IMG/VR virus record: IMGVR_UViG_3300028833_000061
Span: 128,001-192,000 of that record
Origin: a virus
Taxonomy: Duplodnaviria; Caudoviricetes
Strand: one strand, 5' to 3'
DNA: 64,000 bases
Shown here: in pieces, positions 26,396 through 57,537 of the stretch
How positions within the stretch are numbered: position 1 is the stretch's first letter
Layout of the letters: each line of letters opens with the position of its first letter
Notes under the pieces: model-generated
What the model was told of the DNA's origin: nothing
Seen by the model: the letters and a program-made list of their open reading frames with translations, nothing else
The model's database searches: none
Position numbers and translations under genes: made by a program

Positions 26396-26929
26396 CTAGT
26401 TACCCGAATTACCAGACTGTTTGTCTGACGACGAAGACCTGCCACGTATGTCAGGAACCTTCATGGCATTTACTCTGTCTGCGGCAGCGTCATATTTGTC
26501 TTTCAAAGAAGTCAACGTATTATCAGTATACTGCTTTATATCAGGCCAGTAATTTCCAAGAGCGAATCCACCTGCGCCTATGCCTGCGTAAAGCGCCCAT
26601 CTCTTTATCTTGTCTACAAGAGATTCTTCCTCGTCGTCATCGTCTTCATCTTCGGGCTGCATCGCTGCAGGCATAGGTACTCCGTACATAGGATTCTGCC
26701 TGTAGAAATCTCTTGAGTCTCCTCCGTCGTCAAAAAACATAAGTTTACTGGCCTTCTTTTCAAGCGCCTCGGCAAACCCTTCGTAAAAGTCTTCTGGGCT
26801 CAAACTACCTAAGTTCTGGTATTCGGCCTGCTTGACACAGAATTCTGCTATATCTGGATCTACGCCTCTTTCAACAAGTGAACACGTAAATCCATGCTTC
26901 ATCAGCGCATTTTGCTCGTAGTTATTCAT
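26396..26929 (-). CDS. Putative internal head protein (GF...KxA leader, Gly-rich TM-like segment)
   Basis: HGFTCSLVERGVDP..VKQAE, EGFAEALEKKAS, ALYAGIGAGGFALG. Confidence 0.5.
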   Translation of the reverse strand: MNNYEQNALMKHGFTCSLVERGVDPDIAEFCVKQAEYQNLGSLSPEDFYEGFAEALEKKASKLMFFDDGGDSRDFYRQNPMYGVPMPAAMQPEDEDDDDEEESLVDKIKRWALYAGIGAGGFALGNYWPDIKQYTDNTLTSLKDKYDAAADRVNAMKVPDIRGRSSSSDKQSGNSGN

Positions 26930-26983
26930 TTTGTATGTGTAGATGTTTGTTAGCGTCGTATCAAATATTACACCCTTTCATAT

Positions 26984-27016
26984 AAAAAAGCCACCGGCTT
27001 TTTACACCGGTGGCTT
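26984..27016 (-). terminator. Intrinsic terminator after major capsid gene
   Basis: Minus strand AAGCCACCGG-TGTAAAAAG-CCGGTGGCTT-TTTT. Confidence 0.85.
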
Positions 27017-27049
27017 GAGGTACGAGAGCCTTGTGGACTCTTACGACTC

Positions 27050-28015
27050 TTACGACTCCTGCTTCTTGCTGTTGAAGATGGCGAGCGCAACGCCGGCAAC
27101 GTTTCCGATGCCGACACCGCCGAGCCAGTAGGAGAACATCTCGATGAAGTATGCCTCCTTCTTCATGTACATCGTCCAGTCCGTGAGATAGAACGCACGG
27201 CCGAGGAACTTAGGAGCAGCGAAGAAGAACACGTAGCCGTCTGGGATCAGGTCGTCCTTGATAGTGAAGAGGACCTTGACGCCCATGAACTTGTCGATCG
27301 TCAGACCGTCGGTGAAGAAGGTCTGGGAGAGATCGCCACCAACCTCGTCGCGGCCGAAGGTGAGCAGCTCGCCCGCGGTGATCTCGTTCATGAGGCAGAG
27401 ATCGTTGCGGAGGCGGTACTTGCCCTCCTTGTTGCCACGAGGAAGCATGTTGCGAGCTTCCGCGAACGTACGACGGTTGAGGCCGCCCTCGAACTCCATC
27501 TTCTGGATCTTGCCAGTCATATGGTTGCGGCCGTCCTCGTCGCAGTCGTTGACGATCGAGTAGCAGAGCTCGATGAACTTGCGGTCGTACTCCGTGTGGG
27601 CATCCTTGAGCGCATTGTCCGTGAGGATCTTGCGGATGTCCATGCGGGTCGTGCGGAGCTCGTCGATGTCCTTCTGGAACTTCGGCGTGAGCAGACGCGC
27701 GAACGGGATGCGGAAGTTCGTCGACTCGATGTACTCGGCATCGGGCACCGTCTGGAACGGAACGAACTTGGCTCCAGGGGAGTCAGGCTCGAGCTCGATG
27801 GTGATCGAGAGGCCCTCCTGCATGCCACGATCGAGCATGTCGTCGGTAGCCTGCTCCGGAGGAAGGATCTTCATTGCGAAGGAATCCTCGCGGAGGCCCG
27901 TGCGGATGTAGTCGGTCGAAGCCTGAGCGGTCTTCTCGATGTTGTTGGAATTCTCGCGAGTGAGCTCGCCGAGAATCGCGTTGTTCATGACGTCTGTAGG
28001 AACGTTCTGTGTCAT
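27050..28015 (-). CDS. Major capsid protein
   Basis: 321 aa; order protease-scaffold-decoration-MCP-terminator; strongest GC3 codon bias in window; EKTA near N-terminus then LREDSFAMKILPP. Confidence 0.8.
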   Translation of the reverse strand: MTQNVPTDVMNNAILGELTRENSNNIEKTAQASTDYIRTGLREDSFAMKILPPEQATDDMLDRGMQEGLSITIELEPDSPGAKFVPFQTVPDAEYIESTNFRIPFARLLTPKFQKDIDELRTTRMDIRKILTDNALKDAHTEYDRKFIELCYSIVNDCDEDGRNHMTGKIQKMEFEGGLNRRTFAEARNMLPRGNKEGKYRLRNDLCLMNEITAGELLTFGRDEVGGDLSQTFFTDGLTIDKFMGVKVLFTIKDDLIPDGYVFFFAAPKFLGRAFYLTDWTMYMKKEAYFIEMFSYWLGGVGIGNVAGVALAIFNSKKQES

Positions 28016-28035
28016 TGTATGTTTCCTTTCCTAGC

Positions 28036-28584
28036 TTAGATGCCCGTGAACTGGATCACAGTCCTGTTGGCACCGCGGCGCCAAGGCAGGCCATCCTTGC
28101 CATCCTTTGCAATGGCATTGTTGACCCAGCGAGTGAACGGAGGAACGGTAACAACCGCAACCGCGTTCTCCTCGGTGCCCTTGGAGAGCATGCCGTCCTT
28201 GACCGTGAGGAAGTCGCCGACCTTGAAGTCGTCGCCGTCGTAGACATCGGTCTGGTACTCTTCCTTGCGGAGGAGGAGGCCGGTGAGACGAGGCTGAGAC
28301 TGGATGACGTTGGAGCGCATGTCGGGCTTCTGTGTGATCGCAATGTCACCAGCCTCGTACACGACGCCACCAGCCATCGCGGCCTGCGTGTCAGCGTAGT
28401 CCTGAAGAGCAATGTAGACCAGCTTCTGAGAGCCGTCTGCAAGCTCGAATGCGCCCTTGTCGTTCGCCTGAATGATTGAACCGCGGACGATCTTCTCATT
28501 CGCTTCGGCGGGGTCTACAGGAAGGGTCTTGTCAACCTGTGCCATCGAATAGGTGGCGCCCTTAATAGGTGTGAACCATCCCAT
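28036..28584 (-). CDS. Putative capsid decoration/cement protein
   Basis: 182 aa beta-rich, directly upstream of MCP, same codon bias, AGGAG RBS; FKVGDFLTVKDGML. Confidence 0.65.
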   Translation of the reverse strand: MGWFTPIKGATYSMAQVDKTLPVDPAEANEKIVRGSIIQANDKGAFELADGSQKLVYIALQDYADTQAAMAGGVVYEAGDIAITQKPDMRSNVIQSQPRLTGLLLRKEEYQTDVYDGDDFKVGDFLTVKDGMLSKGTEENAVAVVTVPPFTRWVNNAIAKDGKDGLPWRRGANRTVIQFTGI

Positions 28585-28605: not shown

Positions 28606-28974
28606 TTAGTCAATCGTACCTGTATTTCCTCCACGAGGGAAGAAAATCCGTTCGAAAGGATCGTCGCCGGTACTCACGGCAATCTTTTCGTTTGAAGCGA
28701 CCCCGAGAGAATCAGGCCCGATTTCTCCGGCAAGCTTCTCAACGTAGTCGAAAATCAATTCAGGTGCCTCCGCAACCTTGTCGATGAAAGCACTCTCGTT
28801 TGTCTTTGAGAGAAGGCCTCTCTCGACAAGTACGGAGGCAGCCTTCGTTGCGCGCTCTACGAATGCAGACTTCTTGGCCTCGGCCTCCGCAAGCTTTTCG
28901 AGCTTGGGCTCCGTCTCCTCGATGTACTGCACGGCCTTCTGGGCCAGCGCGTTGTAAGACTGCTCCGTAATCAT
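28606..28974 (-). CDS. Small putative prohead core protein
   Basis: Helical, several EKLA/EKIA motifs; start ATG 28974 after AAGGTG. Confidence 0.55.
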   Translation of the reverse strand: MITEQSYNALAQKAVQYIEETEPKLEKLAEAEAKKSAFVERATKAASVLVERGLLSKTNESAFIDKVAEAPELIFDYVEKLAGEIGPDSLGVASNEKIAVSTGDDPFERIFFPRGGNTGTID

Positions 28975-28984
28975 CGATTGCACC

Positions 28985-30280
28985 TTACTTTCCGAGGTGA
29001 GCAACAAGCAGCTTGGAAGCGGCGGCGATCTTGCTCATCATAGAGGCTCTCTTGTATATGAGAGATGCCTGCTTGCTGACGGGCTTCTTGGAGATCTTCT
29101 TGGCCGCAACCTTCTTCGCGGAGGCCTTCTTGGCAGATGCCTTCTTTGCAGAAGCCTCCTTCTCACCGTCGTCAGCCTCGGGCTCCGCCTCTGGCTCCTC
29201 TCCGGATGGCTCAGCTGAAGTATCTACAGCGGCCTCGTCGCCGCCCTCGGCTGCCTCGTCTCCGACGCCGACATCCAGGCCTAGCTCCTCCGCCGCCTCG
29301 GGCTCCTCGGCCGCGAGCTCCTCGACGATTTCTGCGAGATCCTCCTCGGTGAGAGCTCCAGACTCAAGCTGTGACATCAGGACCTGTGCAACCGCATCCT
29401 CTGGAAGCATCTCGCCGTCATCGGCTACGTCAGCTTCCGCGGCAACGTCTGCTGGAACGTCCTCGGCCGCTGGCTCCTCTGGAACTGCCTCCGGCTCCTG
29501 GGCTGCCATTGCCGCAATGGCGGCATCTGCTTCGTTAGCGCCTAGATCCTGTGCCTGCTTGATGCGAACATACTGAGCGGCTGCGCGCTGTCCTGCTACA
29601 TATTCCTGAGCTGCACGCTGACCAGCTGCATATTCCTCTGCTGCCTTCTCCTGCCCTGAGATGAAGTTGAAGACATCCTCTGCCTGCTTGGCTCCGGCCT
29701 GCTTGGCCATAACCTTCTCCGCAAGATCTGCTCCCTCCTTTTCTGCGAGCATGGCGCACGCGAGTTTGGCGAGAATATCTGTTGTAAGCTCAAGATTCAG
29801 TTCGGGAGCGCCAGCAGACTTCGTATCCGGCTTGGACTCGACCTTCTTCTCCTTCTTCTGTTCTACCGCGGGAGCGGCGGCCTGCTTCGTCTGAGCGGCC
29901 TGCTTCGTCTGAGCAGTCTGCTGTCCGTGGATCAGAGAAAGGATGTCGTTGACAAGAGTCTTCTGCGCAGACGCCTCCTTGGCATTTGCATCGGCTGTCT
30001 CGAGCGGCTTCTCCTCTGGGTTGACGATTGACTCGTCGGACTCGAACAGGTCGCCGGCCGTGATAGGACGATCGTCGCCCTTGCCTTCTGTTGAACGAGT
30101 TGACTCTGGACCCATCGATCCGTCATTCACCTCGGGATCCTCCTTCGGCAGAGTAACGTCCTTGTCGTTCTCCGCACCGGGCATGTTGTCGGGATCCTCT
30201 CCCGAAATTTCAGCGAGCTTTGCCTGTGCACGCTTCGTCATAGCCTGCACTTCCTTGAGCATCTGAGAGTATGTTGCCAT
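28985..30280 (-). CDS. Prohead scaffold/core protein
   Basis: Low-complexity acidic Ala/Glu-rich, many K-x-A motifs, between protease and MCP; start ATG 30280. Confidence 0.7.
   Translation of the reverse strand: MATYSQMLKEVQAMTKRAQAKLAEISGEDPDNMPGAENDKDVTLPKEDPEVNDGSMGPESTRSTEGKGDDRPITAGDLFESDESIVNPEEKPLETADANAKEASAQKTLVNDILSLIHGQQTAQTKQAAQTKQAAAPAVEQKKEKKVESKPDTKSAGAPELNLELTTDILAKLACAMLAEKEGADLAEKVMAKQAGAKQAEDVFNFISGQEKAAEEYAAGQRAAQEYVAGQRAAAQYVRIKQAQDLGANEADAAIAAMAAQEPEAVPEEPAAEDVPADVAAEADVADDGEMLPEDAVAQVLMSQLESGALTEEDLAEIVEELAAEEPEAAEELGLDVGVGDEAAEGGDEAAVDTSAEPSGEEPEAEPEADDGEKEASAKKASAKKASAKKVAAKKISKKPVSKQASLIYKRASMMSKIAAASKLLVAHLGK
29876..29914. repeat. 18 bp tandem duplication encoding QTKQAA
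   Basis: gcggcctgcttcgtctga repeated twice. Confidence 0.7.
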
Positions 30281-30285
30281 GTTTT

Positions 30286-31836
30286 TTATTCCTTCTGCAT
30301 GTCTTGAAGCGCTCCTAGCGCCGTCATGCATTCTGCTATTTTAGATGTTTTTTGGTTCGAAGTTTCGCCACATCGGCTGGTTATGACTGCGTCTATAGCA
30401 GCTAGTTTGTAAGCAGCGTATTTCTCCGCTAATTTCTTAGTTACATAACCATTTAAAATCTTTAATGAAGAATTGTCAACAACAAAATTAGGTTTAGTTC
30501 CTTTTATTGTCGCGGACACTACAGAATCCTCTAGCGAGTCAATGCAAGACGCTTCCTTCAGCTCCTCTTTCAACTCAAAAAGATTCTGTCTCGAGATCGG
30601 AAAAGAGCATCCAAGTGGCCACGCGTCAAAATTTAGATCGTTGCACAGTTTCTGCAAACAGGACGTATCTTTAGCCTCTTTAAGTACTTCAGCAACTTTC
30701 TGCGAAACACCGTTTAAATAAGGCTTAACTGTGTTGAAGTCATCTCCCATCGCATACTTGAAGAAAGACGTCGAATCCATGACAACGCCAGCATCGCCTA
30801 GAACCCTGAAGGCTGCTCCAGGATCAAGTTCGCGAAGCTTGTCTATTGTTGAATCTTTCAAAGGATGTGATGCTATCTTGCACAGCTGTACAAGAAACTT
30901 GTCGCGCGCCGAATCTGCAGAGGCTGTCTTTGTTATAAATCCAACATACTTGTCGTGCATGTCTATAAGCTGATTGGCATACGCTAGTTTCCTGAGTCCA
31001 GAAGGAGACGTGATCGCCAGCCTGTCTGACGCCTCTACACCATAGTATTCAGCAAGCTTCACGGAATCGAACGGAAGCGTGTACGACGCCTCCTTCTCTT
31101 CTTTGTCGTCGTCTTTGTCCTTCTCTTTATTTTCCTCGTCCTTGTTGTCCTTGTCCTCGTCTTCCTCGTCTGGCATTACTTTCATAAGATCCCACGCGAT
31201 TCTATCTGCTGGCTTACCTACAAACGAGATATCGAAGAACTTAGGTTCGTCGTTGAACGTAAATATATGCCTTCCGTCCTCCATCATTTCTCCAAGATGG
31301 TCACGGACATGCTCGCACTCAAGCTCGTCTCCCGCGTGCTTTCTCTTCGCGCCGCAAATAGAGCAACGATCATGGTCTACCATGCAAGCCATCGAAAAGC
31401 AGATCTCGCCATCGCGCTCTAGACGCTCAAGCTCTGGAGCTGCCTTCTCTCTGTCAGCATGTATGAACAGCTCTACACGATCCATCATATCGTTAAAAGC
31501 AGAAGCAATTATATCGCCTATGGACTTCTTGGGGTCCTTATTCCTGTGATGCCTGAATACGTGTCCGAACTCTACAAAAGTCGGATGATACTTCTTGCAC
31601 GCCTCACGAGTAAAACCGTCACCGTTCCTGTTTGCTCTGTATGCCTCTGTGTCACCAAGTGCTACAACGTGAATACCTACATGATTCTTGTCTGGCTTCA
31701 GTTCATCGTAGCTCTTACCAAAAATAGTCTCTGTCTCTTTCTTTTCAGCTGTCTTTACAGAATTGCCGGAGTCGACAATCTCCATGCCGACTCCTATGTC
31801 AGGATCGAACTGCGATGACTGTATCAGCTTTATCAT
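30286..31836 (-). CDS. Prohead maturation protease
   Basis: 516 aa; NRNGDGF, HVFRHHRNKDP.KSIGDI, FSMAC..DRCSICG..CEH, FFDISFVGKPAD motifs of assemblin-fold phage serine proteases. Confidence 0.8.
   Translation of the reverse strand: MIKLIQSSQFDPDIGVGMEIVDSGNSVKTAEKKETETIFGKSYDELKPDKNHVGIHVVALGDTEAYRANRNGDGFTREACKKYHPTFVEFGHVFRHHRNKDPKKSIGDIIASAFNDMMDRVELFIHADREKAAPELERLERDGEICFSMACMVDHDRCSICGAKRKHAGDELECEHVRDHLGEMMEDGRHIFTFNDEPKFFDISFVGKPADRIAWDLMKVMPDEEDEDKDNKDEENKEKDKDDDKEEKEASYTLPFDSVKLAEYYGVEASDRLAITSPSGLRKLAYANQLIDMHDKYVGFITKTASADSARDKFLVQLCKIASHPLKDSTIDKLRELDPGAAFRVLGDAGVVMDSTSFFKYAMGDDFNTVKPYLNGVSQKVAEVLKEAKDTSCLQKLCNDLNFDAWPLGCSFPISRQNLFELKEELKEASCIDSLEDSVVSATIKGTKPNFVVDNSSLKILNGYVTKKLAEKYAAYKLAAIDAVITSRCGETSNQKTSKIAECMTALGALQDMQKE
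30451..30479 (-). promoter_or_regulatory. Candidate sigma70-like promoter for scaffold-capsid genes, inside protease gene
   Basis: TTGACA-17-TTAAAT in a locally AT-rich patch ~170 nt upstream of scaffold ATG. Confidence 0.45.
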
Positions 31837-34409: not shown

Positions 34410-35660
34410 CTATGCCCGTCCTGTGAGTTTTATTGCTTCGCGCTGCTTCTTCTCTAGGTCTGTCCACGTATTTGCGTCGTACGGACTTATAGCTATGGAA
34501 TTCACAGCCTGTCTAAGTACTGACCTCGTAAGTTCCTTGTCGTTAGCGAGTTCAGGAGATATGTGCAGCAACGTCTGGTAGATCGACGCAACCGTGTCTG
34601 GATCGGCTTCCGCTATTATCTTGTCTCTTGCCATAAGATCCTGCAGCATCATAGCACGCACAACATTCTCTGTCGTTCGCTTTGTCTCGTCGTTCTCACT
34701 AGCCTGGTTGTCGAAAAGAGCAGAATCCAGATCGAAAGCGTCTGAATGTACTAATCCTTGCGTACCAGTCGTAAGACCCTTGCCAAACGCGAGGCGTCCG
34801 ACCATCGAGGCCTTCTTCTCGTTAAACAGTGATAAAAAAGTACTTGGGCCCTCCTCTTTCTCCCCTATAAACGCAGTCGTTATCTCTGAGTTCATTTTCT
34901 CGGCCTGCTTGTGCATGCTGTCTGCCTGGGCGCGCATGTCTTTCATCGAAGACAGAGTCTCGGCCATATCCTCTGCTGTCTTTATCTCGTCGGAAAGATC
35001 AGAATCGTCAACAAGAGATGCCTTGCACTTTGCTTCCTTGAACTGAGCGGGTAAAACCTTGTCAAGCTCCTTGACGATATCCTTGTTTGCAGACTCCTTG
35101 AAGCGGGCATACTTCTCTACGCCGCCTTTCTTAACAGTCTCAGCAAGCCCATAAAGCTGTGTAACAAGATCGCTCTTCATCATGCCTGCAATGTTAGCTG
35201 CAAAATCTGCGGCATTCTTTACAAGCTTCATCTGATTGACTAGGAGATAAGCCAGATTATCTCGTGACAACCCTGTGGTCTTCTCCTCGTTCTCTGCAGC
35301 CTTCTCGACTACATCATCCTCATGTGCAATGTAATCATAGGCGGGCTTACTGTAGTCGAAGTAAATGTGATTGACCTCTGCGGTCTTCTCCTCCTTGCCA
35401 AGAACCTTGTCTGCGTCTAGCATCATCGCTGCAACCTTGTCCTTGTGTGCAAGAGGAAAAGAAGCGGTTTTGTCGGCAGCTTGCTTGTACTGGTTAATTG
35501 TAATAGCAGTATTTAACGTCTCAACAAGACGATCTGTCTGATCGCTGTTGAACTCATGAGCTGCTGCAGACTTGCAAACAGCCTCGTCAGGCGTGCTTCC
35601 CTCGTTGCAGAACTTTACCGCGTCCTCTAGCGCTGATCTTAATTTGTCTTCAAATGCCAT
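34410..35660 (-). CDS. Putative head core protein
   Basis: 416 aa helical with ~10 K-x-A motifs (DKTAS, EKTAE, EKKAS...). Confidence 0.55.
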   Translation of the reverse strand: MAFEDKLRSALEDAVKFCNEGSTPDEAVCKSAAAHEFNSDQTDRLVETLNTAITINQYKQAADKTASFPLAHKDKVAAMMLDADKVLGKEEKTAEVNHIYFDYSKPAYDYIAHEDDVVEKAAENEEKTTGLSRDNLAYLLVNQMKLVKNAADFAANIAGMMKSDLVTQLYGLAETVKKGGVEKYARFKESANKDIVKELDKVLPAQFKEAKCKASLVDDSDLSDEIKTAEDMAETLSSMKDMRAQADSMHKQAEKMNSEITTAFIGEKEEGPSTFLSLFNEKKASMVGRLAFGKGLTTGTQGLVHSDAFDLDSALFDNQASENDETKRTTENVVRAMMLQDLMARDKIIAEADPDTVASIYQTLLHISPELANDKELTRSVLRQAVNSIAISPYDANTWTDLEKKQREAIKLTGRA

Positions 35661-37015: not shown

Positions 37016-39340
37016 CTACACCGACACGGTGTCTGCATCGTCCCCGCCAACCGACTTCTTCTTGAGATCGAGAGTCAGCTTGCCGAGCGTCTTGAACGTG
37101 CTTCTAAGCACATCTTCCATCTCGACTACGTCGTCAGTGCCGTAGCGAGAAATGAAATCGTCGTGCTTCCAGTAGTACAGGAACAGCACACGGCCAAGAC
37201 GGTCGAGAGTCTCCATGAACTGCGGAATGTATGAATCGATCACGTTGCCAGTGTCGTAGACACGGCTGAGACCACCGATTGTAGCCTGGTCGAATACGTT
37301 CTTCTGACCAAGCTCGGCCGCCTGCTGTGCAAGCTGCTGTGCCTCCTGGTCGATCGGCAGCTCCTGGTTCTGCTCCATCTCGCCGCCGACGTTTTCGCCC
37401 TGCACGTTCTCGTATGGATCGCCACCAGGAACTCCTGAGAGCTGCCCCTGCGTCTCGTCGACATAAGGCATCTGGTATACAGGCATTCCGGTGTATGGAT
37501 CTGTCGTGGCTCCAGGCATCTGAGGCTGAGGCATGTCAACTCCTACAAACGGAGACATCTGCGCAAACTTGATGACATATTCCTCGCTGCCTGCGTTCTC
37601 TGCCTTCTTGAGCATCTTCTTTGCTTGATCATATCCAAGTCCGAGGCGTGTAACCAGAGTAACGCATGCCTGCTTGTAATTGTCGAATTCTACAGCGGAA
37701 TGTCTGTCGAAATTAAGACGGAAGCCGTGGCTGTTGTGTGCAAGACGCAGCGTATGATGTGCATTCTTGAGCATGTAGTCGAACATGGTCGACTCGCTTC
37801 CGAGCGAAACATCCTCCGGCTTCGCGTCGCGATCGTAGTGCTCCCACGTCTCGTCGTCCCTCTTCGCGCGCTTCTTGTAAAGTTTCAGGCACTTCCAGTC
37901 GGAAGGAATAACTAGATATTCGTCGTTGCGCTTCGGGCGTCCGCTAAATTCTGCAAGCTCGATGTTGTCTACAGTCCAAAGATCCCCGCTCGTAATGCTA
38001 CAACGGAAAGAAGGACGGCCATCCGAGTTTCCAAAGAACTCCTTCACGTCGACAGGTCCGATAAACGTATCCTCCGGGCTGACAAGCAATATCCTATCCC
38101 CGTTCTCTATATCGCCGATACTCTTTGCACTGTCATAGGCCTTGCCTTCCGGGCCAGGATCACCGGCATCGCCGTCGGTCTTTACATACACCTTCTCGTT
38201 CGACCACACCCTTCCAGTGCGTCCATCGTCAGGAAAATACACTAGAGTACGATTAGCCTTGTACTCCTTATCGCCCTGTGCAGCTCCATCCTCATAAAGA
38301 ACATAGCCTTTCTTGAATTCGCCACCTGGCATCAGCACTTCGTACACGCCAGGCTTGTCCGGCGAAGCCATGTACTTAGTATACTCCGTCGTGTATGCGA
38401 TAGACTTCTCGTCGTCCTTGCGCTTGTCTGTGATCGTAAAGCCGTTCTCTACGATATCCTTGGCATCCTCCGTGCCGCGAGGAGTATCTGTAACCTTGAC
38501 ATCGAAATCAGGCTTCTCCTCTGCCTGCTTCTTGATAAGGTAGCAGTCCTTTGCGAACTTGTCGGTATAGAATGCTGACGGTCCTTCGTAGAACTTCATG
38601 GCAGCCTCGGCCATCTTGAAGTTCTCGAACGATTTCATCATTGAAATAACGGACTTAGGTCCGCCAATCTTCTCTGCATAATCCTTGAAGAGATCTGCCG
38701 AAGCTGACTTCTCCACGGCCTGCTTGTGAGTAACGGCACCGACGAAACCAGCCCACGCCTTGTTGAACTCTGGATCTTTCTTGGCTGCTTCCTTCGTAGC
38801 AAGCTGCATGTTTGCCCATGCGTCCTGGAAAGACCACGGCTCGTTTGCCTCAGAAACCTTCTCGTTATGATATCCAAGCGGGCCACTCGATGGATGCTGG
38901 AGAAAATCGAAATCAGGATCCTCGAAATCCTGCTGTACATCCTCAGGAGCGCCTGTTCCTAATTCTACGGCCTGACGATTCGTGATGTTGTCGATCCATT
39001 CCTCGGTCAACGGTACGAATGAGTTCGTGCGCTTGTTGAGGATCATGTCGACTCCCTTCACCTGGCTGTTAAGGAAGAACGCAGGAACATAATAATAGTC
39101 CTTGCCAACCTTAAAACCGAAAATGCCAACCGCACGAGAACCGTCGTCTTCTCTCTCTACAGTCTCGAAACCAAGCATGTACTTCATCAGGCCAGGAGCC
39201 CTGTCCTGAATGAATGCATACGCGATCTTATTAAAATCCTGCTCGAACTGTGTATCGTCTGGATTTAGCTGACCCTCTTTGTAAAAGGCCGTGTTACCTA
39301 CACGTTTCAGCAAAGAATTAAAGCTTGGCTTATTTGTCAT
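37016..39340 (-). CDS. Large putative head structural protein
   Basis: 774 aa, biased codon use, several K-x-A motifs, candidate promoter upstream; family not recognised. Confidence 0.55.
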   Translation of the reverse strand: MTNKPSFNSLLKRVGNTAFYKEGQLNPDDTQFEQDFNKIAYAFIQDRAPGLMKYMLGFETVEREDDGSRAVGIFGFKVGKDYYYVPAFFLNSQVKGVDMILNKRTNSFVPLTEEWIDNITNRQAVELGTGAPEDVQQDFEDPDFDFLQHPSSGPLGYHNEKVSEANEPWSFQDAWANMQLATKEAAKKDPEFNKAWAGFVGAVTHKQAVEKSASADLFKDYAEKIGGPKSVISMMKSFENFKMAEAAMKFYEGPSAFYTDKFAKDCYLIKKQAEEKPDFDVKVTDTPRGTEDAKDIVENGFTITDKRKDDEKSIAYTTEYTKYMASPDKPGVYEVLMPGGEFKKGYVLYEDGAAQGDKEYKANRTLVYFPDDGRTGRVWSNEKVYVKTDGDAGDPGPEGKAYDSAKSIGDIENGDRILLVSPEDTFIGPVDVKEFFGNSDGRPSFRCSITSGDLWTVDNIELAEFSGRPKRNDEYLVIPSDWKCLKLYKKRAKRDDETWEHYDRDAKPEDVSLGSESTMFDYMLKNAHHTLRLAHNSHGFRLNFDRHSAVEFDNYKQACVTLVTRLGLGYDQAKKMLKKAENAGSEEYVIKFAQMSPFVGVDMPQPQMPGATTDPYTGMPVYQMPYVDETQGQLSGVPGGDPYENVQGENVGGEMEQNQELPIDQEAQQLAQQAAELGQKNVFDQATIGGLSRVYDTGNVIDSYIPQFMETLDRLGRVLFLYYWKHDDFISRYGTDDVVEMEDVLRSTFKTLGKLTLDLKKKSVGGDDADTVSV

Positions 39341-43115: not shown

Positions 43116-43122
43116 TATAAAC

Positions 43123-44916: not shown

Positions 44917-44954
44917 AAGACTATTTATTATAGATGAGGAATTATGGAGGTGTT

Positions 44955-46498: not shown

Positions 46499-46561
46499 TT
46501 TTAAAACCTTTATGCTACTATATCACATAAAGAGCAATTTTAACACACAAAGGGCCTGCAG

Positions 46562-47449
46562 ATGACAAACAACTTCAAACGCGGTTTTACAGACGCTATC
46601 AGCACAATGCAGAAACAGGCCGCACTATCGTGGCGCCCATGGAGGTGGGGCAAAAACAACGCAGAAACGGGAAACAAGTACAACTGGGGAGATTTATGGA
46701 CTGGGCTTGGGGCCGCCGGTGCCCAGACGATGAAAGCAATGTCTCGTGCCGGACACGATCTTGCTAGAGGCGCAAGTTCTCTTCTAGGGCAAAGTGACTG
46801 GGTTGATAAAATAAACAAATCCGAAAAATATACAGATAATTTCTGGAACGAACATACTCCTGGCGGACAGGACTCTGTAAACACATTTGAATACGACCCG
46901 GGTGCGAGACAGGCACTAAGAGCAACTGAATTGATAGGTGCTACTCTTCCTGGTGCGGTCGCAGGGCCATATGGTTTGCTTGCCACGACTGCTGCAACAA
47001 AGGCGGGAACAAGACCGGACACTGGAGTGAAGAGCATTTCTTGGGATGAAAACGGAAGACCTGTTCCTGAGCTAGTTAATGCGGATCCGGCGTACAAGGC
47101 CTGGGATAATGCAACCGGCTTCATGCCATATACGTGGGTTGGAAACCTCACAGGGGAGGTTAACAACGAGATGGCAGACTCAAACTCAGACAAATACTCG
47201 GCTGGCAATGTCGTTGGAGCCGGAGCAACCGGGCTTACCATGGGTGCCATCGATAGAGCGCTTCGATACGCTGGAAGAAAATGGCCAGCCTTAACCGCTG
47301 CCGGAGCAACTCTTGCAGGAGCAGGTACTGGAGCCTGGAGAGCAAAGCCATTCTTGCGCGAATGGAATGAAAATCTAGACACCCTACGTGGAGACGCAGA
47401 AACAGCGCGCCCCGACGTACTTCTGCACAGAACAAACCCTCAAAGGTAA
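46562..47449 (+). CDS. Putative internal virion protein with MTNNFKRGF leader and Gly/Ala-rich segments (only plus-strand gene)
   Basis: Begins MTNNFKRGFTDAISTMQKQAA, homologous to leaders of minus-strand neighbours; fills a gap lacking a plausible minus-strand gene. Confidence 0.7.
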   Translation: MTNNFKRGFTDAISTMQKQAALSWRPWRWGKNNAETGNKYNWGDLWTGLGAAGAQTMKAMSRAGHDLARGASSLLGQSDWVDKINKSEKYTDNFWNEHTPGGQDSVNTFEYDPGARQALRATELIGATLPGAVAGPYGLLATTAATKAGTRPDTGVKSISWDENGRPVPELVNADPAYKAWDNATGFMPYTWVGNLTGEVNNEMADSNSDKYSAGNVVGAGATGLTMGAIDRALRYAGRKWPALTAAGATLAGAGTGAWRAKPFLREWNENLDTLRGDAETARPDVLLHRTNPQR

Positions 47450-47480
47450 AAAAAGCCGACGATTTTTACGTCGCCGGCTC
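47448..47480 (-). terminator. Intrinsic terminator after lysozyme (between convergent genes)
   Basis: Minus strand GAGCCGGCGA-CGTAAAAA-TCGTCGGCTT-TTTTT. Confidence 0.8.
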
Positions 47481-47497
47481 TGTAGTTGTGTAGGCCG

Positions 47498-47947
47498 CTA
47501 AGTTTGCGTGGTTGTTTGAACCTTTTTTATCTTTTCAACGTATGGATCCGTAGATTTCTTTAGCCAGCCCTGAGGACCACCGTTGTGTATTCGAATAAGC
47601 ACTTCGATGGTTGCGGGTTTTCCTGTGCGACGAGTATATGCCGAACCGTACCGAGTAAGATACGCTCTTGCAACCTCATAGGACTTAGCCCTGTCCTTCA
47701 TGTCGTTCAGGGTATATGAAAGGCGGGAGTCGGTCAAGTAGGGCTGCTGGATCTGAAGGCAACCGACAGATAGCTTTCCGTTGGTGTCGGTGACGACCAC
47801 GTCGGTCCTGCCGTTGCTTTCAACAATAGCAACTGCATCGAGAAACGACGTCCAGTCGGCGTCGGTAGTCGGAATAGTCGAAAGGTCGATTCCGAAGGAG
47901 TTGATGACCATGCAGAACGCCACGACCATGGCTGCGAGTTTTTTCAT
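47498..47947 (-). CDS. Lysozyme, invertebrate-type/destabilase-like, with signal peptide
   Basis: AIVESNG (catalytic Glu), GCLQI..Y..D, YLTRY, RIHNGGP signature; MKKLAAMVVAFCMVINSFG signal peptide. Confidence 0.8.
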   Translation of the reverse strand: MKKLAAMVVAFCMVINSFGIDLSTIPTTDADWTSFLDAVAIVESNGRTDVVVTDTNGKLSVGCLQIQQPYLTDSRLSYTLNDMKDRAKSYEVARAYLTRYGSAYTRRTGKPATIEVLIRIHNGGPQGWLKKSTDPYVEKIKKVQTTTQT

Positions 47948-48070
47948 TTGTTTTTTTTTTGTTAAAAAGAATCACGGGCATCAGGAATTGATGTCCGCTT
48001 CTTTTTACCAGGTATCCAACCCGGCATTATATTATAACGCTCAAAAGTCTATTTTTATTCTTACGCAGCA

Positions 48071-49702
48071 CTACAGACCAAACTTCTTCAAGGCCAACGA
48101 TACAGAATCTCTAGTGTCTCTTCCTGGCCATCCCTGTGCCTTGTCTATGTCCTTAAGCCAGTTGGGATTGGCCCTGTAATAAGGTTCAAAATAGTCTGAA
48201 TTCAATCTACTTAGATTATCTATCCATCCATACGTAGGATTGTACACCATCTCATGTCCCAAGACCGTGGTTGGCGTAAAGACAGAAGGACCGACCTCGT
48301 CGAAGAATCTAAGCATCTCGCTACGAAGCTTCTGAGCTTTCGCGTCATCGACAGCAGTCGTACTACCGGCATCGGTTGGTCTAAGTCCACCAGTCTTTCC
48401 TATGTCAGAAACCGCTGTATCTACGTAATTTGTCCCTAGTGGCGTCAACGCATTTGCGTCAAAATCCCACAGGCCTCCGGACATACCAAAGTCAGCTGGC
48501 CTTGAAGAGTCTCCAAACCCGCCATTTACATAAGCGGATATGGAATTCCTGAACATAGGATATTTTCCTGTCTGCTGTACTACTGCTCTTAAAACAGCCT
48601 CATCCAGAGCATTATCAGCGGCCCACTGCCTGTCCTCGTCTGACATTCCGCTGTCACCAGCCCACGCCCCCATCATAGGAGCCCAGCTGTAAGCCATGTT
48701 TCCTATAGACGGATCCATGCTAAAACTGGTGTTCTCGTCTGTAGGAAGCATGGATGCGGCCAACGACGTGAACCTACTCTGACGTGGTGCATATCCTACG
48801 CCGTCTCTGGCATACGTCTCTCTGCCGACAGGCGTCTTCTCTAGCGCAGATGCTTTAGATGCATTGAAAAACGGCGTTCCGGCGTAATCAGCCTCTTGCA
48901 TAGGAGCGCCTTCGCCTCCTGGAGACATGAACGGAACATTGAACCTTAGAGGACGATAAGCCGTTGCCGGCTTGCCTTTGGTGCTATGATTGTTCTTCTC
49001 TGCAGCGGCCGCCGCGTCTCTGTTAACCTTTGCGTAGTCCTTCGGTGTCTGTGCACCCATCATCTCATCAAGGACCGCGATGTTGTCGTCATTTCTCTTT
49101 GCCATAGAATACGCGGCACCACCGTATTTCTGCATTCTACGGCGTTTCTTGTTCCTGCTTCTCCTATCTAGAAACAGATACGTGAGAAGAGCTGTTGTGG
49201 CAAGACCTCCCCAAGTCCACGGACTCTTCCAGTCGACAGACCAGCCACCGTTCGTCTGCTGAGGCGTTGTCGTATTTACAGGATTAGTATTAGGAACATC
49301 TGGAACACCTGCATCAGTACCAGCAGAATCAGCAAGAAGGCTCTCGTCCACTGTAGACTGAGATGGCTGCGGAGGTGCATCGACCTGTGGAGCGGGCGCT
49401 GGCGCTGTTTCTGGTGGATTTACGCTTGCTGTTGGAGCCGCTCCAGGTCTGAACAGTCCTCCGGTCTCTCTCTTTGCCGTGGTTCCAACGGCAGAAGCGG
49501 CCTGCTGTGGCGTGTAGGCCTGACCTTTTGCTCCAGTTGCCTTCCATGCCCTCTGGGCAGCGTCCTGAACAATGTCCTTTCCTACAAGATTGAACATCCT
49601 CTTCTCCCCGTCATTATAGAACAACCACGGCGGAACTGAGTCAGTAGCATAGTCCTTCGTTAGAATGCGTTCGGCTGTCGTCTTCGGTCTTTGAATGGCC
49701 AT
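48071..49702 (-). CDS. Hypothetical protein with one TM segment, putative internal virion protein
   Basis: 543 aa; WTWGGLATTALLTYLFL followed by RRSRNKKRRR. Confidence 0.6.
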   Translation of the reverse strand: MAIQRPKTTAERILTKDYATDSVPPWLFYNDGEKRMFNLVGKDIVQDAAQRAWKATGAKGQAYTPQQAASAVGTTAKRETGGLFRPGAAPTASVNPPETAPAPAPQVDAPPQPSQSTVDESLLADSAGTDAGVPDVPNTNPVNTTTPQQTNGGWSVDWKSPWTWGGLATTALLTYLFLDRRSRNKKRRRMQKYGGAAYSMAKRNDDNIAVLDEMMGAQTPKDYAKVNRDAAAAAEKNNHSTKGKPATAYRPLRFNVPFMSPGGEGAPMQEADYAGTPFFNASKASALEKTPVGRETYARDGVGYAPRQSRFTSLAASMLPTDENTSFSMDPSIGNMAYSWAPMMGAWAGDSGMSDEDRQWAADNALDEAVLRAVVQQTGKYPMFRNSISAYVNGGFGDSSRPADFGMSGGLWDFDANALTPLGTNYVDTAVSDIGKTGGLRPTDAGSTTAVDDAKAQKLRSEMLRFFDEVGPSVFTPTTVLGHEMVYNPTYGWIDNLSRLNSDYFEPYYRANPNWLKDIDKAQGWPGRDTRDSVSLALKKFGL

Positions 49703-52700: not shown

Positions 52701-54142
52701 TTATCCTTCATTGCATACAGGAATTTCGAATTGGGATCCTGTCCAGGAAATGCAACACCACCATCGACAGCCTTTGCCAGGCTTACAAACTCCTTCTTGC
52801 CCGTCTTCAGATTTATAAACTTCGAGTACAGCTGGCCGTCTTTTCCTTTATATGTATTGGAGGCGGCTCTGACATCCACACCCGCATTCATCGACTCAGG
52901 GCCAGCAACAGGATCAACAAATCCAAGATAATCTCCCTGCACATCCCTTGCTTCTGCAGTAACGGCATCTGGAGATCCGATTCCGCCTTGGCCCATCTTG
53001 GTTATGCGGTTCATCTGAACATAGTTCGATATCGGATTTGCCTCTTCGCCAGGAAGCGCAAGACCCGTTCCGCTCAAGAAATGCTCGATGTACGGATTCA
53101 GCGCGCCTCTCGGAATCCTTCCAAGATTACGATCGCGCTTAGCCTTCCACAACAGCTGCTGCGTAAGCTTTCCAGAGTCCTTGTCGACACGTTCCTTAAG
53201 AAAGTCCTCTATCGAATAGACGCTAGAATACCTAGGAGAGTCTCTTCTGTCAGGCTGTTCGTCGCCCCTGGATATGTTTATTACCTTCTGCGAGGCGCGT
53301 AGGAGAAGCTCTGGCGTGATTCCCTTGGTATCTACAAGACCCATAGTGCGCTGGACGACATCCTCGTCCATTCCACACTGTGCAAGGGAATCCTTAACGT
53401 ATCTCGCCATCTCAAACTCATTGGCAAGAGCATCCGCCTTCTTGCCTGCAAGTCTGCGATATAGCCTCTTCATAGCCTGAGAGTCGTGCTTCTTTGCGTT
53501 CTCAAGCGTTACGTCGTTGCCCCAGTACTTTGCGATTGTCTTGTCGTCTACGCCTATGCCCTTAAGCACTGGATACAACGGTATGTGACCCTGGCCAACC
53601 TGCATGCTGAACACGCCTGTCTCTGGATTCATCTCTATTCTGAATCCAGGGCCTGTTCCAGGTTTTACATTGAATTGGGCCTCGTACTCTCCAGACGTCT
53701 TTCGTCTTGCGTACACGCCAGGACGAAGTCTCGACTGATTGACTACAGTGTACTCATTTCCATTAGAAATTATCGTACCTCTGTCCGTGTAATACGGCAC
53801 GTTCATTATAACGTCATCACGCTCGTCTATGACCTTGTTGCTCTTCTTGTCGATAAGTTTCCACGTTCCAGACATCCTCGTCTGGAGCTTACGGTTCTTC
53901 AGAAGAGCGTCCTTCTGCTGTGCTATGGTGAAGCTCTGAGGACTGGTATACCTTACGTTGTCCAGCTCGATCCTGTAGTCGTCGTTCTCAACAGGAAACC
54001 GTTTCTTTACAGAATCCAGAAGTCCATCATATATGAACTGACGTGTCTTTTTTGTGTCATCGAACTGGCGCAGGTCGTCAGGAACGTCGGACACCGTGCC
54101 CGCCGCCTGCTTTTGTGCCAGTGGTATGCTGTCGAGAAGCAT
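49712..54142 (-). CDS. rpoB: DNA-directed RNA polymerase beta subunit fused to N-terminal half of beta-prime
   Basis: beta motifs PYYTDRGTIISNG, NFEDAIVISE, DKLS..KG, MNPMGFLSR, HLAEKKLSAR; then beta-prime GGLFD, PVIPPKFRP, SDLNDLY, DRAPTWH and catalytic AGDFDGDQ (49979-49993). Confidence 0.95.
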   Translation of the reverse strand: MLLDSIPLAQKQAAGTVSDVPDDLRQFDDTKKTRQFIYDGLLDSVKKRFPVENDDYRIELDNVRYTSPQSFTIAQQKDALLKNRKLQTRMSGTWKLIDKKSNKVIDERDDVIMNVPYYTDRGTIISNGNEYTVVNQSRLRPGVYARRKTSGEYEAQFNVKPGTGPGFRIEMNPETGVFSMQVGQGHIPLYPVLKGIGVDDKTIAKYWGNDVTLENAKKHDSQAMKRLYRRLAGKKADALANEFEMARYVKDSLAQCGMDEDVVQRTMGLVDTKGITPELLLRASQKVINISRGDEQPDRRDSPRYSSVYSIEDFLKERVDKDSGKLTQQLLWKAKRDRNLGRIPRGALNPYIEHFLSGTGLALPGEEANPISNYVQMNRITKMGQGGIGSPDAVTAEARDVQGDYLGFVDPVAGPESMNAGVDVRAASNTYKGKDGQLYSKFINLKTGKKEFVSLAKAVDGGVAFPGQDPNSKFLYAMKDNVPTKVARNEVSYMVPDFSSMSTTTTNFNPMPTGVQGARQFYATKFWEQYLPMAKGEVPLVASLMPDGKETFLEHYGKRIGSVTANEDGVVTAVNDDSVVVKGADGKKRTYDLVKYYPHNRMSSFSTFPAVEVGQSVRKGDLIAHSNFTDKKTGSFNTGVNLKVAIMPSGKSGNFEDAIVISETAAKKLATEQLFGFDTDKKNGVLIDKKKYMAAFPQAFTKQQLENIDDNGIAKPGTVLHKGDPIIVSIGPKLLSAKDAMLGKLSKTLRNSFTDRSEVWEHDWPGTVVDAVMTPSGAKVNVVTTPPKQVADKLSPHDALKGTIGEVRPDDEMPRDAVTNEPYEILMNPMGFLSRVAPNQLIEIALGKVAKKTGKQVRIPQLPPEEGWATWAKAQLDAAGVKDSSDIFDPSTGKTLHNIGDGYVYIQAFHHLAEKKLSARGNDAAYTQDEAPARGGFSGAKRVSGLDRTALLSHGATENLKDMMTIRGTKNEEYWNKLRLGLPVPEPGVPFIYNKFLETLKAGGINVVEKGSKTSILPLTDKDIDEMAGNRIIKNSKMMNSDLKPVDGGLFDLGKTGGPDGLRWSAIKLPEPIPNPIMEEPVRRVLGLTVDQLEKILSGTEKLNGKTGGEAIKSALEAIDVDKAISAARNDIQNKRGAGRDNAVKVLGYLKSMQEQGLEPKDWMITKVPVIPPKFRPVSKLGDTQLVSDLNDLYKDVIENAENYSALKGSVADESLADERLNLYKSVAAVFGLGDPITPEGQSKNIKGAIRQVIGTGSPKFSMFQAKIIAKNLDNVGRAVITPDENLDMDQIGIPKDIAWEMYKPYVQRRLVRRGYSPVQAVNMIRGRDDTALNALQEEMANRPVLMDRAPTWHKFNIMAYKPSLVDGKSIRISPFSASPMAGDFDGDQVNIHVPSSDKAVREAYEKMLPSKNLISLTDLSSPRYKPENEQVMGLYNLTRPATRKRPKVFRTAKDAKEAYRQGLIGMNDPVQILDM

Positions 54143-54148: not shown

Positions 54149-54472
54149 CTAGATCTCTCCGTCTTCGTGCAACTTGGCTATTGCGTCGGCAATAAGTCTC
54201 TTCTTTTCGTTAATAACGTCCTTAGCACCGCTATCTGATCCTACAAGCCTTACACGCCCGCCTATTAAGTTATCGCCGCTCTTCTTCTTTTTCTTGGATG
54301 AACCTTTCTCGTCCTGCATGGCGATTATTGTATCGATCTTCTGCTCCAGGTCTCTGTTTGTCTTGTCTGTGTTGATAGACAGGTTTGCGAGCGTCTCGCC
54401 GGCAGAGCGCATCATGTCCAAAATTCCCGCTTTCTTGCAGAAAAACGAGTATCCTAGTTCTTTTGCTGTCAT
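54149..54472 (-). CDS. Small protein with GY...KKA leader
   Basis: MTAKELGYSFFCKKAG; directly upstream of RNAP. Confidence 0.55.
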   Translation of the reverse strand: MTAKELGYSFFCKKAGILDMMRSAGETLANLSINTDKTNRDLEQKIDTIIAMQDEKGSSKKKKKSGDNLIGGRVRLVGSDSGAKDVINEKKRLIADAIAKLHEDGEI

Positions 54473-56454: not shown

Positions 56455-56455
56455 T

Positions 56456-56764
56456 CTAATCCTCCAACGTGTACTCGACCCACTTCAAAAGACGCATCCA
56501 GGTCGTAGACCCGTCGCTACGCTGCATCTTATCGGTCTTGTCGCTAGATACTGTAACTATGCCCGCGTATACCTTATTAAGCAGATCCTTCTCAACTTCG
56601 GTGCACTTAGCTCTTTGTTCAGGGTCAAGAAGATCGAATACCTCTATTCTAACACGGGATATTACTACGTCCTTGTGTCCCTCAAGCTTAGATACAGCAT
56701 AAGCCAGGTCGGCCTCGCCGATCGGCATCGCTATTGGCATTCTAGTAGGTGGCTTAAGCGGCAT
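56456..56764 (-). CDS. Hypothetical protein
   Basis: 102 aa, tightly packed in operon. Confidence 0.6.
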   Translation of the reverse strand: MPLKPPTRMPIAMPIGEADLAYAVSKLEGHKDVVISRVRIEVFDLLDPEQRAKCTEVEKDLLNKVYAGIVTVSSDKTDKMQRSDGSTTWMRLLKWVEYTLED

Positions 56765-56775
56765 TTCTACAAAAA

Positions 56776-57150
56776 CTATGCAAATTCCTCAGGATTCATA
56801 AGACGACTTTTCATAGCGTTCATAACATTGTTGTATGTGTCCCTTGTTGCTATCAGACGTTCTGTCTTCTTGCTGTCCTTCTTCATGGATCTGTCCAAGT
56901 AGTGCAACATCGCGCCTACAGGAACGCCGGCAAGCACCGACAAGGCTATCGCATTCGTCAGAGTACCGCTTACAGCACCTGATGTAACTCCATAAGCCTT
57001 GCCAAGCACGTCAAGCACACCCGAGGACTTGATCATGCCATCAAGGCCGATGTCCTTCGGTGTCTTTCCACAGGACGCAGTCTTGCGCATTATTCCAAAC
57101 TTAATGCACTGCAGTCTCTCTTCGTCTGTCAAGTAATCCTTAAAGTTCAT
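56776..57150 (-). CDS. Putative internal virion membrane-like protein
   Basis: FGIMRKTAS, hydrophobic AIALSVLAGVPVGAMLHYL. Confidence 0.55.
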   Translation of the reverse strand: MNFKDYLTDEERLQCIKFGIMRKTASCGKTPKDIGLDGMIKSSGVLDVLGKAYGVTSGAVSGTLTNAIALSVLAGVPVGAMLHYLDRSMKKDSKKTERLIATRDTYNNVMNAMKSRLMNPEEFA

Positions 57151-57183
57151 TTTTCGCCTTCCTGCTATTAAAGCACAAAAACA

Positions 57184-57537
57184 CTAGTATGTATACAAGT
57201 CGCTGCCGTAGCGCCTATGTGGATCTGGATTCGCCTTGTTGTACTTCATGTTGCCATACAATCCTCCGGCTACGGTCGCCATCCCCTTCCAGAAGGAATT
57301 ACTGCCCAGATAGTTCGCAAGCATGTTTCCTCCAAGAGCCCCCACAGCGACATTGGCAAGTCTCCCATAAGGTTGCGTAACTGGCAAGCCCGTATTGACT
57401 ATCTCCTGTTTAAGGGTGTGCTGCTGCATAGGCGTAAGCCAATCATTCGCAGAAATATGGCGCATCACGTCACCTACAGTAGGCTGAAGTTCTATAAGCT
57501 GCGCAAGCTTCAAAAGTCCTGGCATCGCTCTAGCCAT
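57184..57537 (-). CDS. Glycine-zipper protein
   Basis: LKLAQ; GALGGNMLANYLG..GMATVAGGLYG. Confidence 0.55.
   Translation of the reverse strand: MARAMPGLLKLAQLIELQPTVGDVMRHISANDWLTPMQQHTLKQEIVNTGLPVTQPYGRLANVAVGALGGNMLANYLGSNSFWKGMATVAGGLYGNMKYNKANPDPHRRYGSDLYTY

Follow-up and report, generated by a model that had tools for sequence, protein, structure and literature searches.

The head genes of uncultured large gut and rumen phages are currently almost without annotation, which raises the question how the proteins of such a head are addressed to the capsid and how they are processed there. To our knowledge, the cleavage codes of prohead proteases are known experimentally only for T4, for phiKZ-like phages (A/S/G-x-E), for some HK97-type phages and for herpesviruses. 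Here, the question is posed for one uncultured tailed phage of the rumen (Caudoviricetes; IMG/VR record IMGVR_UViG_3300028833_000061), of whose 201,401-bp genome we analysed bases 128001–192000, a stretch of 64,000 nucleotides referred to as the window. A preliminary description of this window had proposed that about 20 otherwise unrelated head-region proteins share a leader of the form GF...K-x-A, that the protease encoded in the same region cuts after K-x-A, and that the leader is a portable tag recruiting new cargo into the head. Our analysis makes it rather probable that K-x-A is the cleavage code of a prohead protease with the fold of T4 gp21 and that the GF element serves head cargo as a docking peptide that is later removed. 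The position of the cut, after the Ala, we infer from motif statistics and from comparison with other systems. Coordinates refer to the window unless genome coordinates are indicated, unnamed proteins are designated by the first coordinate of their gene, and the features are collected in Table 1.

The expected number of K-x-A was computed for each protein from its own Lys and Ala content, and the scan covered all 1,600 residue pairs at gaps of 0–3. K-x-A occurs 121 times in the 29 proteins of the head block (26396–57537) compared with 75.4 expected (z 5.3) and is the top of the 1,600 gapped pairs, whereas the 22 proteins of the tail block contain 39 compared with 38.9 expected. This composition-corrected comparison of head and tail had been proposed in the preliminary description, and its remark that K-x-A is not conspicuous in sheath, tube or baseplate proteins agrees with the tail-block count. 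Lys and Ala are abundant in the enriched proteins, and the excess could in principle be a by-product of Lys/Ala-rich helical composition or of chance. We give this explanation practically no weight: the expectation is calculated per protein, and the control patterns K-A (57), K-xx-A (80) and A-x-K (85) are flat in the head block, each compared with about 75 expected. Shuffling inside blocks of 8–40 residues leaves the excess standing (z 5.0–5.6; none of 1,000 shuffles reaches 121), and local Lys/Ala-rich composition is thus not its cause. Moreover, a Lys/Ala-rich tail protein of 1,298 residues contains 12 K-x-A compared with 10.3 expected, and the signature is replicated in three other phages (G001, Arash and G). 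An origin by composition or chance was rejected on the shuffles and the flat control patterns.

The surroundings of the motif and its placement are biased as well. Ser (3.1-fold) and Glu (3.0-fold) are enriched directly after K-x-A, and K-x-A-S is found 22 times in the head block compared with 4.5 expected and four times in the tail block compared with 3.0. Gln is four-fold over background in the middle position, and two places before the Lys the hydrophobic residues Met, Val and Leu are enriched, with Met favoured. K-x-A falls within the first 40 residues in 21 of the 29 head-block proteins, while 7.2 are expected (reached in none of 5,000 shuffles); the same holds for only one of the 22 tail-block proteins, and the remaining genome is at expectation. 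The "about 20 proteins" of the preliminary description are thus found for the N-terminal K-x-A; the strict GF leader has three copies in the window. Five of the six most enriched among the 254 open reading frames of the whole genome fall in one 11-kb morphogenesis stretch. The high densities claimed earlier were also recovered for the protease (17 compared with 4.2 expected), the scaffold-like protein (18 compared with 8.2) and the 28606, 34410 and 37016 proteins, all of them above the expectation from their own composition (Table 1). As a positive control, the same statistic was applied to gp67, gp68, gp21 and gp22 of T4, for which the top two patterns are I-x-E (15 compared with 5.8) and L-x-E (16 compared with 6.9). 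These are the known gp21 sites, and T4 tail proteins are without a comparable signal. The K-x-A half of the preliminary reading is well supported, albeit indirectly.

The second line of evidence concerns the enzyme. Its gene had been called a prohead protease from the sequence, and this assignment holds by fold; the PHROG match (Table 1) is weak. An AlphaFold2 (AF2) model built from 52 homologues (mean predicted local distance difference test, pLDDT, 81.8) is composed of a compact domain (residues 1–208), a disordered acidic linker (209–254; pLDDT < 50) and a helical C-terminal domain (255–516). Residues 1–208 of the model align with T4 gp21 (5JBL_A) with Z 11.3 and a root mean square deviation of 4.2 over 148 of 165 residues, and the next structural match of this domain has Z 5.0. 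Foldseek alone gave a weak match (E 0.035), and the match became clear only in the second structural alignment. By its modelled structure, the window protease is a gp21-fold prohead protease. H56, H96, H97 and S148 are invariant in the 52 homologues, and catalytic residues may be among them. Phage G gp19, named head maturation protease (PMC12484599), is 36% identical to it over the catalytic domain. A candidate site for self-release, K-E-A-S, lies in the linker (residues 248–251), and in 96% of 103 aligned sequences a K-x-A occupies the same alignment column (81%) or its neighbour (15%). In the model, the K-x-A-S sites at 248, 303, 320 and 427 coincide with disorder, coil or the end of a helix. 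Approximately one sixth of the listed protease homologues (P0015, P0034, P0037, P0041, P0044 and others) are 830–900 residues long and contain Hint and LAGLIDADG domains (PF13403, PF14528); these insertions are inteins in the prohead protease gene of related phages.

The signature is not confined to this genome. In G001, a complete 209-kb relative with a protease 43% identical to that of the window, K-x-A is enriched in the protease (13 compared with 3.4), the 34410 orthologue (11 compared with 3.7), the scaffold (10 compared with 5.5) and the 28606 orthologue (5 compared with 0.8). K-x-A is the top pattern in 101 of 102 intein-free protease homologues (at least 41% identity; median excess four-fold), a count that does not stand for 101 independent events because the homologues share ancestry, which lowers its weight in favour of a cleavage code. 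Judged by the major capsid protein (MCP) and the protease, the nearest cultured relatives are Salmonella phage Arash, the Vibrio phages D69, D148 and D181, and phage G. In the head module of Arash, K-x-A again ranks first among the patterns (48 compared with 24.1). This module includes gp220, the counterpart of the 34410 protein (10 compared with 3.0), and gp223, the positional analogue of the scaffold-like protein (8 compared with 3.0); gp223 and the scaffold-like protein are not alignable, yet K-x-A is enriched in both. K-x-A is also the top pattern in gp19–21 of phage G (16 compared with 6.1). Within the protease, K-x-A is conserved at the N-terminus and around residue 283, and between residues 209 and 516 the Lys of K-x-A is conserved at 0.59 compared with 0.12 for other Lys. 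In gp93 of Mycobacteriophage Cali, a distant protease homologue, K-x-A occurs 14 times compared with 7.0 expected and is not the top pattern. This protein of 1,286 residues (45351–49211 of NC_011271) is annotated as "tape measure", which is probably wrong because its N-terminal domain is protease-like (33% identical to the prohead protease over residues 67–214) and its gene directly precedes that of the major head protein.

Conservation of this kind could also be expected if K-x-A were a binding or structural motif of head-core proteins, contacting the scaffold, the MCP or DNA, with the proteins staying whole. Several sites of the protease tail (260, 283, 380 and 468–477) are inside predicted helices, and for two sites the position is almost the same throughout (0.99 of sequences), which would also fit a structural role. 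We nevertheless consider it improbable that the motif only binds, as many other sites change position among homologues without loss of overall density. Moreover, a binding function leaves unexplained why the density peaks in the protease itself and in the scaffold, why K-x-A is biased towards the N-terminus and why Ser is preferred after it, and the statistic applied here identifies the true cleavage motif when used on T4.

If K-x-A is cut, the enzyme might be another one. A caspase-domain protein (Peptidase_C14) is encoded at the edge of the head block, its gene is kept in the relative G001 (present in G000 and G001), and bacterial caspase relatives prefer basic P1 residues, so that a cut after the Lys would be conceivable; a host enzyme might be considered as well. 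Both are very improbable in our view. Arash and phage G are without a C14 gene and still show the K-x-A signature in their gp21-like protease and scaffold genes. Because of this absence the C14 protein cannot be the common cause and was rejected as such. Host signal peptidase is unlikely since the leaders are without a hydrophobic core: they are polar or mixed, as in MTNNFKNGFVSAMRKLA, and no hydrophobic stretch of at least 10 residues precedes the predicted cut, as would be found in a Sec-type signal peptide processed by signal peptidase I at A-x-A. A signal-peptide-like start was observed only for the SLT-like protein at 47498–47947. Cleavage by the gp21-fold protease remains the reading that we follow below.

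The other half of this reading concerns the GF element. We defined the strict leader as MTxxFKxGF followed by K-x-A within 3–9 residues. It heads three proteins of the window (the 43666, 46193 and 46562 proteins, the last on the plus strand) and five more encoded round the portal gene. Similarity among these eight proteins is confined to residues 1–20, and their bodies are without BLAST similarity to each other; seven of the eight leaders end in K-x-A within 20 residues. The leader was searched for in 5.8 billion proteins by word index and in 1.84 billion representatives by exhaustive profile, resulting in 31 and 18 matches, respectively, and both searches found it only in a narrow lineage. 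In relatives it heads at least 12 further bodies which beyond the leader are without similarity to any protein of this genome. The claim that the leader is portable is therefore substantiated by eight unrelated bodies in this genome and by those of the relatives. It is nearly always followed by K-x-A and then by a linker rich in Pro, Gly and Asp. The conserved residues of the leader use different synonymous codons, so that selection acts on the protein; since the upstream DNA differs as well, a DNA or RNA element was rejected. Genes with the leader are concentrated near those of the portal and the RNA polymerase, and in an intermediate relative the portal gene is flanked by four leader genes. 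All peptides quoted in the preliminary description were found in the genes named there, and three of its "near-identical" leaders, those of the 43666, 46193 and 46562 proteins, are strict. The remaining five (26396, 41277, 41959, 54149 and 56776 proteins) are looser: they contain G-F or G-Y plus K-x-A, or a related helix-turn-helix-like module, instead of the strict leader. The gene at 46562–47449 is the only plus-strand gene of the head block and overlaps a minus-strand open frame of 280 codons (46540–47382); an 83%-identical orthologue (P0133) supports the plus-strand frame.

All three strict-leader genes of the window lie in a 7-kb island, together with the genes for a GNAT multidomain protein and an SLT-like lysozyme. 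The island behaves as variable cargo because G001 is without the whole of it (Table 1). A second leader class, MKTRA(I/L)HxLIKTA, also seen as MKT(R/D)A(I/L)xxL(I/L)K(T/Q)A, is found at the start of three proteins whose bodies differ, encoded outside the window at genome positions 1294–1698, 7010–8179 and 102333–103724. The N-terminal peptide of Arash gp221 is LLKGLREGLVDGLLKAA.

The short leader appears to be the first helix of a larger, strongly conserved module, (Y/F)xxGF(I/M)DKCAELGVDPxxLxKxA, which in a looser form reads GFxxKCAExGVDP...K-x-A. The module is present in one to three copies per protein and may be N-terminal, internal or C-terminal. The 26396 protein carries a full copy. The 41277 protein, for which a leader had been described, has two copies at its C-terminal end, so that the module is not a leader there. 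One bearer of the module adjoins an RNA polymerase beta gene on a 144-kb contig, according to the gene list of that contig. Because the placement of the module varies and a second leader class exists, the common denominator is a short, putative docking element bounded by K-x-A rather than one N-terminal tag.

The element could also be a lasting, working part of its protein, namely a helix of ejected or membrane-active proteins which binds a membrane, the cell wall or a partner, or a handle for an assembly chaperone, K-x-A being incidental or serving trimming only. Internal and C-terminal copies and up to three copies per protein are in favour of this, as is the frequent joining of the module to glycine-zipper bodies, and the strongly conserved core GF(I/M)DKCAELGVDP suggests a specific partner. 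Such a permanent function is in our judgement unlikely, as the leader heads bodies of very different kinds, K-x-A and the linker follow it almost without fail, and its genes cluster with those of the portal, the protease and the packaged polymerase, in a pattern resembling the T4 capsid targeting sequence.

According to the reading preferred here, a removable docking peptide together with a K-x-A protease, the course of events would be as follows. The prohead is assembled, and the protease would then cut after Ala, with Lys at P3, Ala at P1 and mostly Ser, Glu, Ala or Gly at P1'. It would free itself at K-E-A-S in the disordered linker, and its helical tail would be reduced to small peptides together with the scaffold-like protein and several core proteins; if the scaffold-like protein were cut at every K-x-A, mostly pieces of 5–35 residues would result. 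Short N-terminal propeptides would be trimmed from the MCP, the beta subunit of the virion RNA polymerase and approximately 20 head-block proteins. The MTxxFKxGF leader or the longer module would act as a portable docking peptide, holding unrelated cargo in the core of the assembling prohead until it is severed at its terminal K-x-A. The cargo may include glycine-zipper proteins, proteins with cell-wall-binding or lytic domains, and an acetyltransferase.

Several observations weigh against this scheme and were taken into account in our estimate. On the side of the motif, the 54469 protein, for which a high density had been claimed, is at expectation (5 compared with 5.1), and the MCP of phage G is without K-x-A. 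As to the protease, no Pfam family matched, and a profile search of PDB sequences with the protease alignment gave no matches. With regard to the docking element, one strict leader ends in K-Y-G, the internal and C-terminal copies of the module do not agree with a simple N-terminal tag, the leader as a helix is significantly amphipathic in no more than two of five cases, and the exact DNA pattern for F-K-x-G-F gave no match in G001, where looser leader variants such as AYIRGVLTKYAEQKQAA are found. Finally, the Arash paper and its supplement contain gene tables only, without peptide positions, and the protease is not mentioned (PMC10585845).

Table 1. Features of the window related to the predicted K-x-A cleavage code and the GF element. 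Coordinates are window positions; cut sites are predictions.
Feature	Position	Strand	Basis or remark
Full module HGFTCSLVERGVDP...VKQA, residues 10–35 of the 26396 protein	26825..26902	-	as in P0154, P0159–P0170
MCP, 321 residues	27050..28015	-	aligns with the annotated Arash MCP over 92% of its length, 25% identity
Predicted 30-residue MCP propeptide ending K-T-A, then QAST	27926..28015	-	MCP alignment
133-residue protein between scaffold-like and MCP genes; K-x-A 6 vs 1.3	28606..29007	-	orthologue also enriched
Scaffold-like Ala/Lys/Glu-rich protein, 18 K-x-A, probable start Met18	28985..30331	-	K-x-A statistics, position
Prohead protease, 516 residues, 17 K-x-A	30286..31836	-	phrog_18299 head maturation protease, E 7.6e-6
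K-E-A-S, protease linker residues 248–251, candidate self-release site	31075..31107	-	pLDDT < 50 over 209–254
416-residue head protein; K-x-A 13 vs 5.2	34410..35660	-	orthologues also enriched
774-residue head protein; K-x-A 12 vs 4.5	37016..39340	-	K-x-A statistics
beta'-C subunit of split phiKZ-style RNA polymerase	39406-41277
Two module copies at C-terminal end of the 41277 glycine-zipper protein, residues 145–175 and 194–213	41316..41522	-
N-terminus of the 41959 protein ending GFKKQA, then FVP	42448..42504	-	G001 orthologue: K-R-A, then FVP
Variable cargo island between RNA polymerase beta gene and 41959 gene	42514..49702	-	absent at this position in G001
Strict leader MTNNFKNGFVSAMRKLA of 396-residue protein 43666-44856	44806..44856	-	leader match
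412-residue multidomain protein, K-K-A at 71–73, 226–228, 317–319	44955..46193	-	sequence
Strict leader MTENFKRGFMDKLA of 101-residue protein 46193-46498	46457..46498	-	leader match
Strict leader MTNNFKRGFTDAISTMQKQA of 295-residue protein 46562-47449	46562..46621	+	leader match
Virion RNA polymerase beta and beta'-N fusion	49712-54142
N-terminal 13 residues of RNA polymerase beta/beta'-N fusion, ending QKQA	54104..54142	-	sequence
N-terminus MTAKELGYSFFCKKA of 107-residue protein just upstream of RNA polymerase beta gene	54428..54472	-	loose match only
N-terminal 25 residues of the 56776 protein ending FGIMRKTA	57076..57150	-	orthologues GFMRKLA (L010), LKFA (G001)
N-terminus MARAMPGLLKLA of the 57184 protein	57502..57537	-	L010 orthologue IEKLA
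Caspase-domain (Peptidase_C14) protein, rival protease	57840..58670	-	PF00656, E 2e-12

Nearly all genes of the window are carried by the minus strand. Its low-coordinate end contains baseplate and tail genes, including the sheath gene (22401–24455, phrog_279), followed by the head-morphogenesis block and then by unannotated head proteins with the split RNA polymerase. The portal gene lies outside the window (genome 1695–3461; 27% identity to the Arash portal, E 6e-79). The gene order protease, scaffold-like protein, 28606 protein, 28036 protein and MCP is the same in G001 and Arash. Among the predicted cut sites (Table 1), the K-x-A which had been noted near the MCP N-terminus was recovered at the equivalent place in three aligned MCPs, as KTA, KMA and KEA. 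For comparison with the N-terminus of the polymerase beta/beta'-N fusion, Arash gp206 begins with MPKSA-S. Homologous polymerase subunits are the most abundant proteins of Arash virion preparations (PMC10585845). The 116 Arash "virion" proteins include ribonucleotide reductases (PMC10585845), so that the preparation probably contains non-structural proteins, and the "coverage" in Table 2 of that paper cannot be sequence coverage because 100% is given for a protein of 129 residues with two unique peptides (PMC10585845).

The 44955 protein is a weak candidate for a polyprotein cut at its domain borders. Two of its K-K-A sites (226–228 and 317–319) sit in identical EKKASS peptides, a GNAT match covers residues 123–205, and a DUF3465 match starts at residue 319 with 24.9 bits, just under the Pfam cut-off of 25 bits. 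A single-sequence AF2 model is unusable (pLDDT 36) and the viral-contig scan returned no relatives for an alignment, so that the argument from domain borders rests on the Pfam ranges. Glycine-zipper segments, detected by weak Pfam Gly-zipper matches, are found in the proteins encoded at 33545–34402, at 41277–41954 and at genome 7010–8179; segments of this type are typical of membrane-inserting proteins and fit ejected cargo. The second strongest K-x-A excess of the genome (13 compared with 3.1) belongs to a protein of 348 residues whose gene precedes the window by 20 kb (genome 107906–108952, minus strand) and is thus remote from the head block. This protein has an N-terminal EKTA-S and is without PHROG family; it may be a further substrate of the protease, encoded away from the head genes. 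A 153-residue protein (58847–59308, minus strand) looks like a stand-alone spare part because its match to the anaerobic ribonucleotide reductase model (PF13597, E 5e-7) is confined to the final 30 positions of that model, the glycyl-radical end.

If K-x-A is a cleavage code, mature ends, scaffolds and the proteins packaged as cargo could be read from the sequences of hundreds of uncultured large phages of gut and rumen, and packaged and ejected proteins would become predictable from a readable code. The GF element would be a second portable capsid-addressing peptide after that of T4, in this case on an island of variable cargo genes, and could serve as a tag for loading chosen proteins into capsids; phage and herpesvirus proteases would be linked by substrate specificity as well as by fold. 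These predictions are cheap to test since Arash and phage G are cultured and virion mass-spectrometry runs are published (PMC10585845, PMC12484599). The proposed clade of K-x-A phages is wide and mostly uncultured; many of these phages package a self-encoded RNA polymerase. We tentatively suggest, as a possibility less secure than the reading for this phage, that in a clade including Arash and phage G the protease switched from the Glu cut of T4 and phiKZ to a herpesvirus-like Ala cut. Within one lineage of the clade, the module FKxGF / GFxDKCAELGVDP...K-x-A may have spread as a general handle by which almost any protein could dock in the head and then be cut loose.

How the predicted system relates to known ones can be seen best by comparison with T4. 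The modelled fold of the window protease is that of gp21, and both systems use a three-residue motif with a free middle position which is dense in protease and scaffold and found at the N-termini of head proteins. As in the targeting sequence of the T4 internal proteins IPI–III, a short N-terminal peptide is common to unrelated proteins and ends at the presumed protease motif; in T4, proteins are directed to the core of the prohead by their propeptides (PMC10052503, citing Mullaney and Black 1996). In contrast to T4, the predicted motif is K-x-A and not L/I-x-E, so that P1 would be Ala rather than Glu, and the window protease carries a helical tail of 260 residues. The leader is also longer, is without sequence similarity to the T4 targeting sequence and is part of a helix-turn-helix-like module that is also found internally and C-terminally.

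The phiKZ-like phages (phiKZ gp175, SPN3US gp245) share with the window the large size of the phage, the split virion-type beta/beta' RNA polymerase among the head genes and, as predicted here, N-terminal propeptides on many head proteins. Ser is preferred at P1' there (PMC10052503) and, according to the motif statistics, after K-x-A here. However, cleavage follows A/S/G-x-E there and is predicted to follow K-x-A here. In SPN3US most propeptides comprise 111–254 residues and approximately 80% of the head proteins are uncut (PMC10052503), whereas the propeptides predicted here are short (10–40 residues) and are found on approximately 70% of the head-block proteins. The window MCP and protease are not close in sequence to those of the phiKZ group.

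By fold, herpesvirus assemblins and phage prohead proteases have long been placed in one group. Assemblins cut x-Q-A before Ser or Thr, and the sites YLQA-T and VQA-S are described for pseudorabies virus (UL26 family) (PMC4498786). The cut predicted here between Ala and Ser, in many cases with Gln as the middle residue (K-Q-A-S), would resemble this. The arrangement in which a linker containing a site joins the protease domain to a scaffold-like helical part likewise recalls UL26. In herpesviruses the protease severs a short capsid-binding peptide from the scaffold, and by analogy the same may happen in the phage: a C-terminal copy of the module cut at K-Q-A-S would mirror the herpesvirus maturation site, at which the capsid-binding scaffold tail is removed. 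The differences are the Lys at P3 instead of Val, Leu or Ile and the dozens of predicted sites per protein compared with two or three. No sequence similarity to assemblins was detected, and the likeness is drawn from the literature, not from a fold match. In P22, a phage without maturation protease, the scaffolding protein has a C-terminal helix-turn-helix domain that binds the coat. The module of approximately 25–30 residues, although without sequence relation to this domain, looks like two helices with a G-V-D-P turn and could dock to the shell in a similar manner.

We found no report on a K-x-A prohead motif in the literature searched, whose coverage is incomplete, so that this is no proof of novelty. 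Systems of this kind are known from T4, from phiKZ-like phages and from herpesviruses, while in the searched literature both the module and the specificity predicted here are new. By analogy, we read the system as a variant of the scheme of protease plus targeting peptide which these viruses share, combined with a herpes-like Ala-Ser cut.

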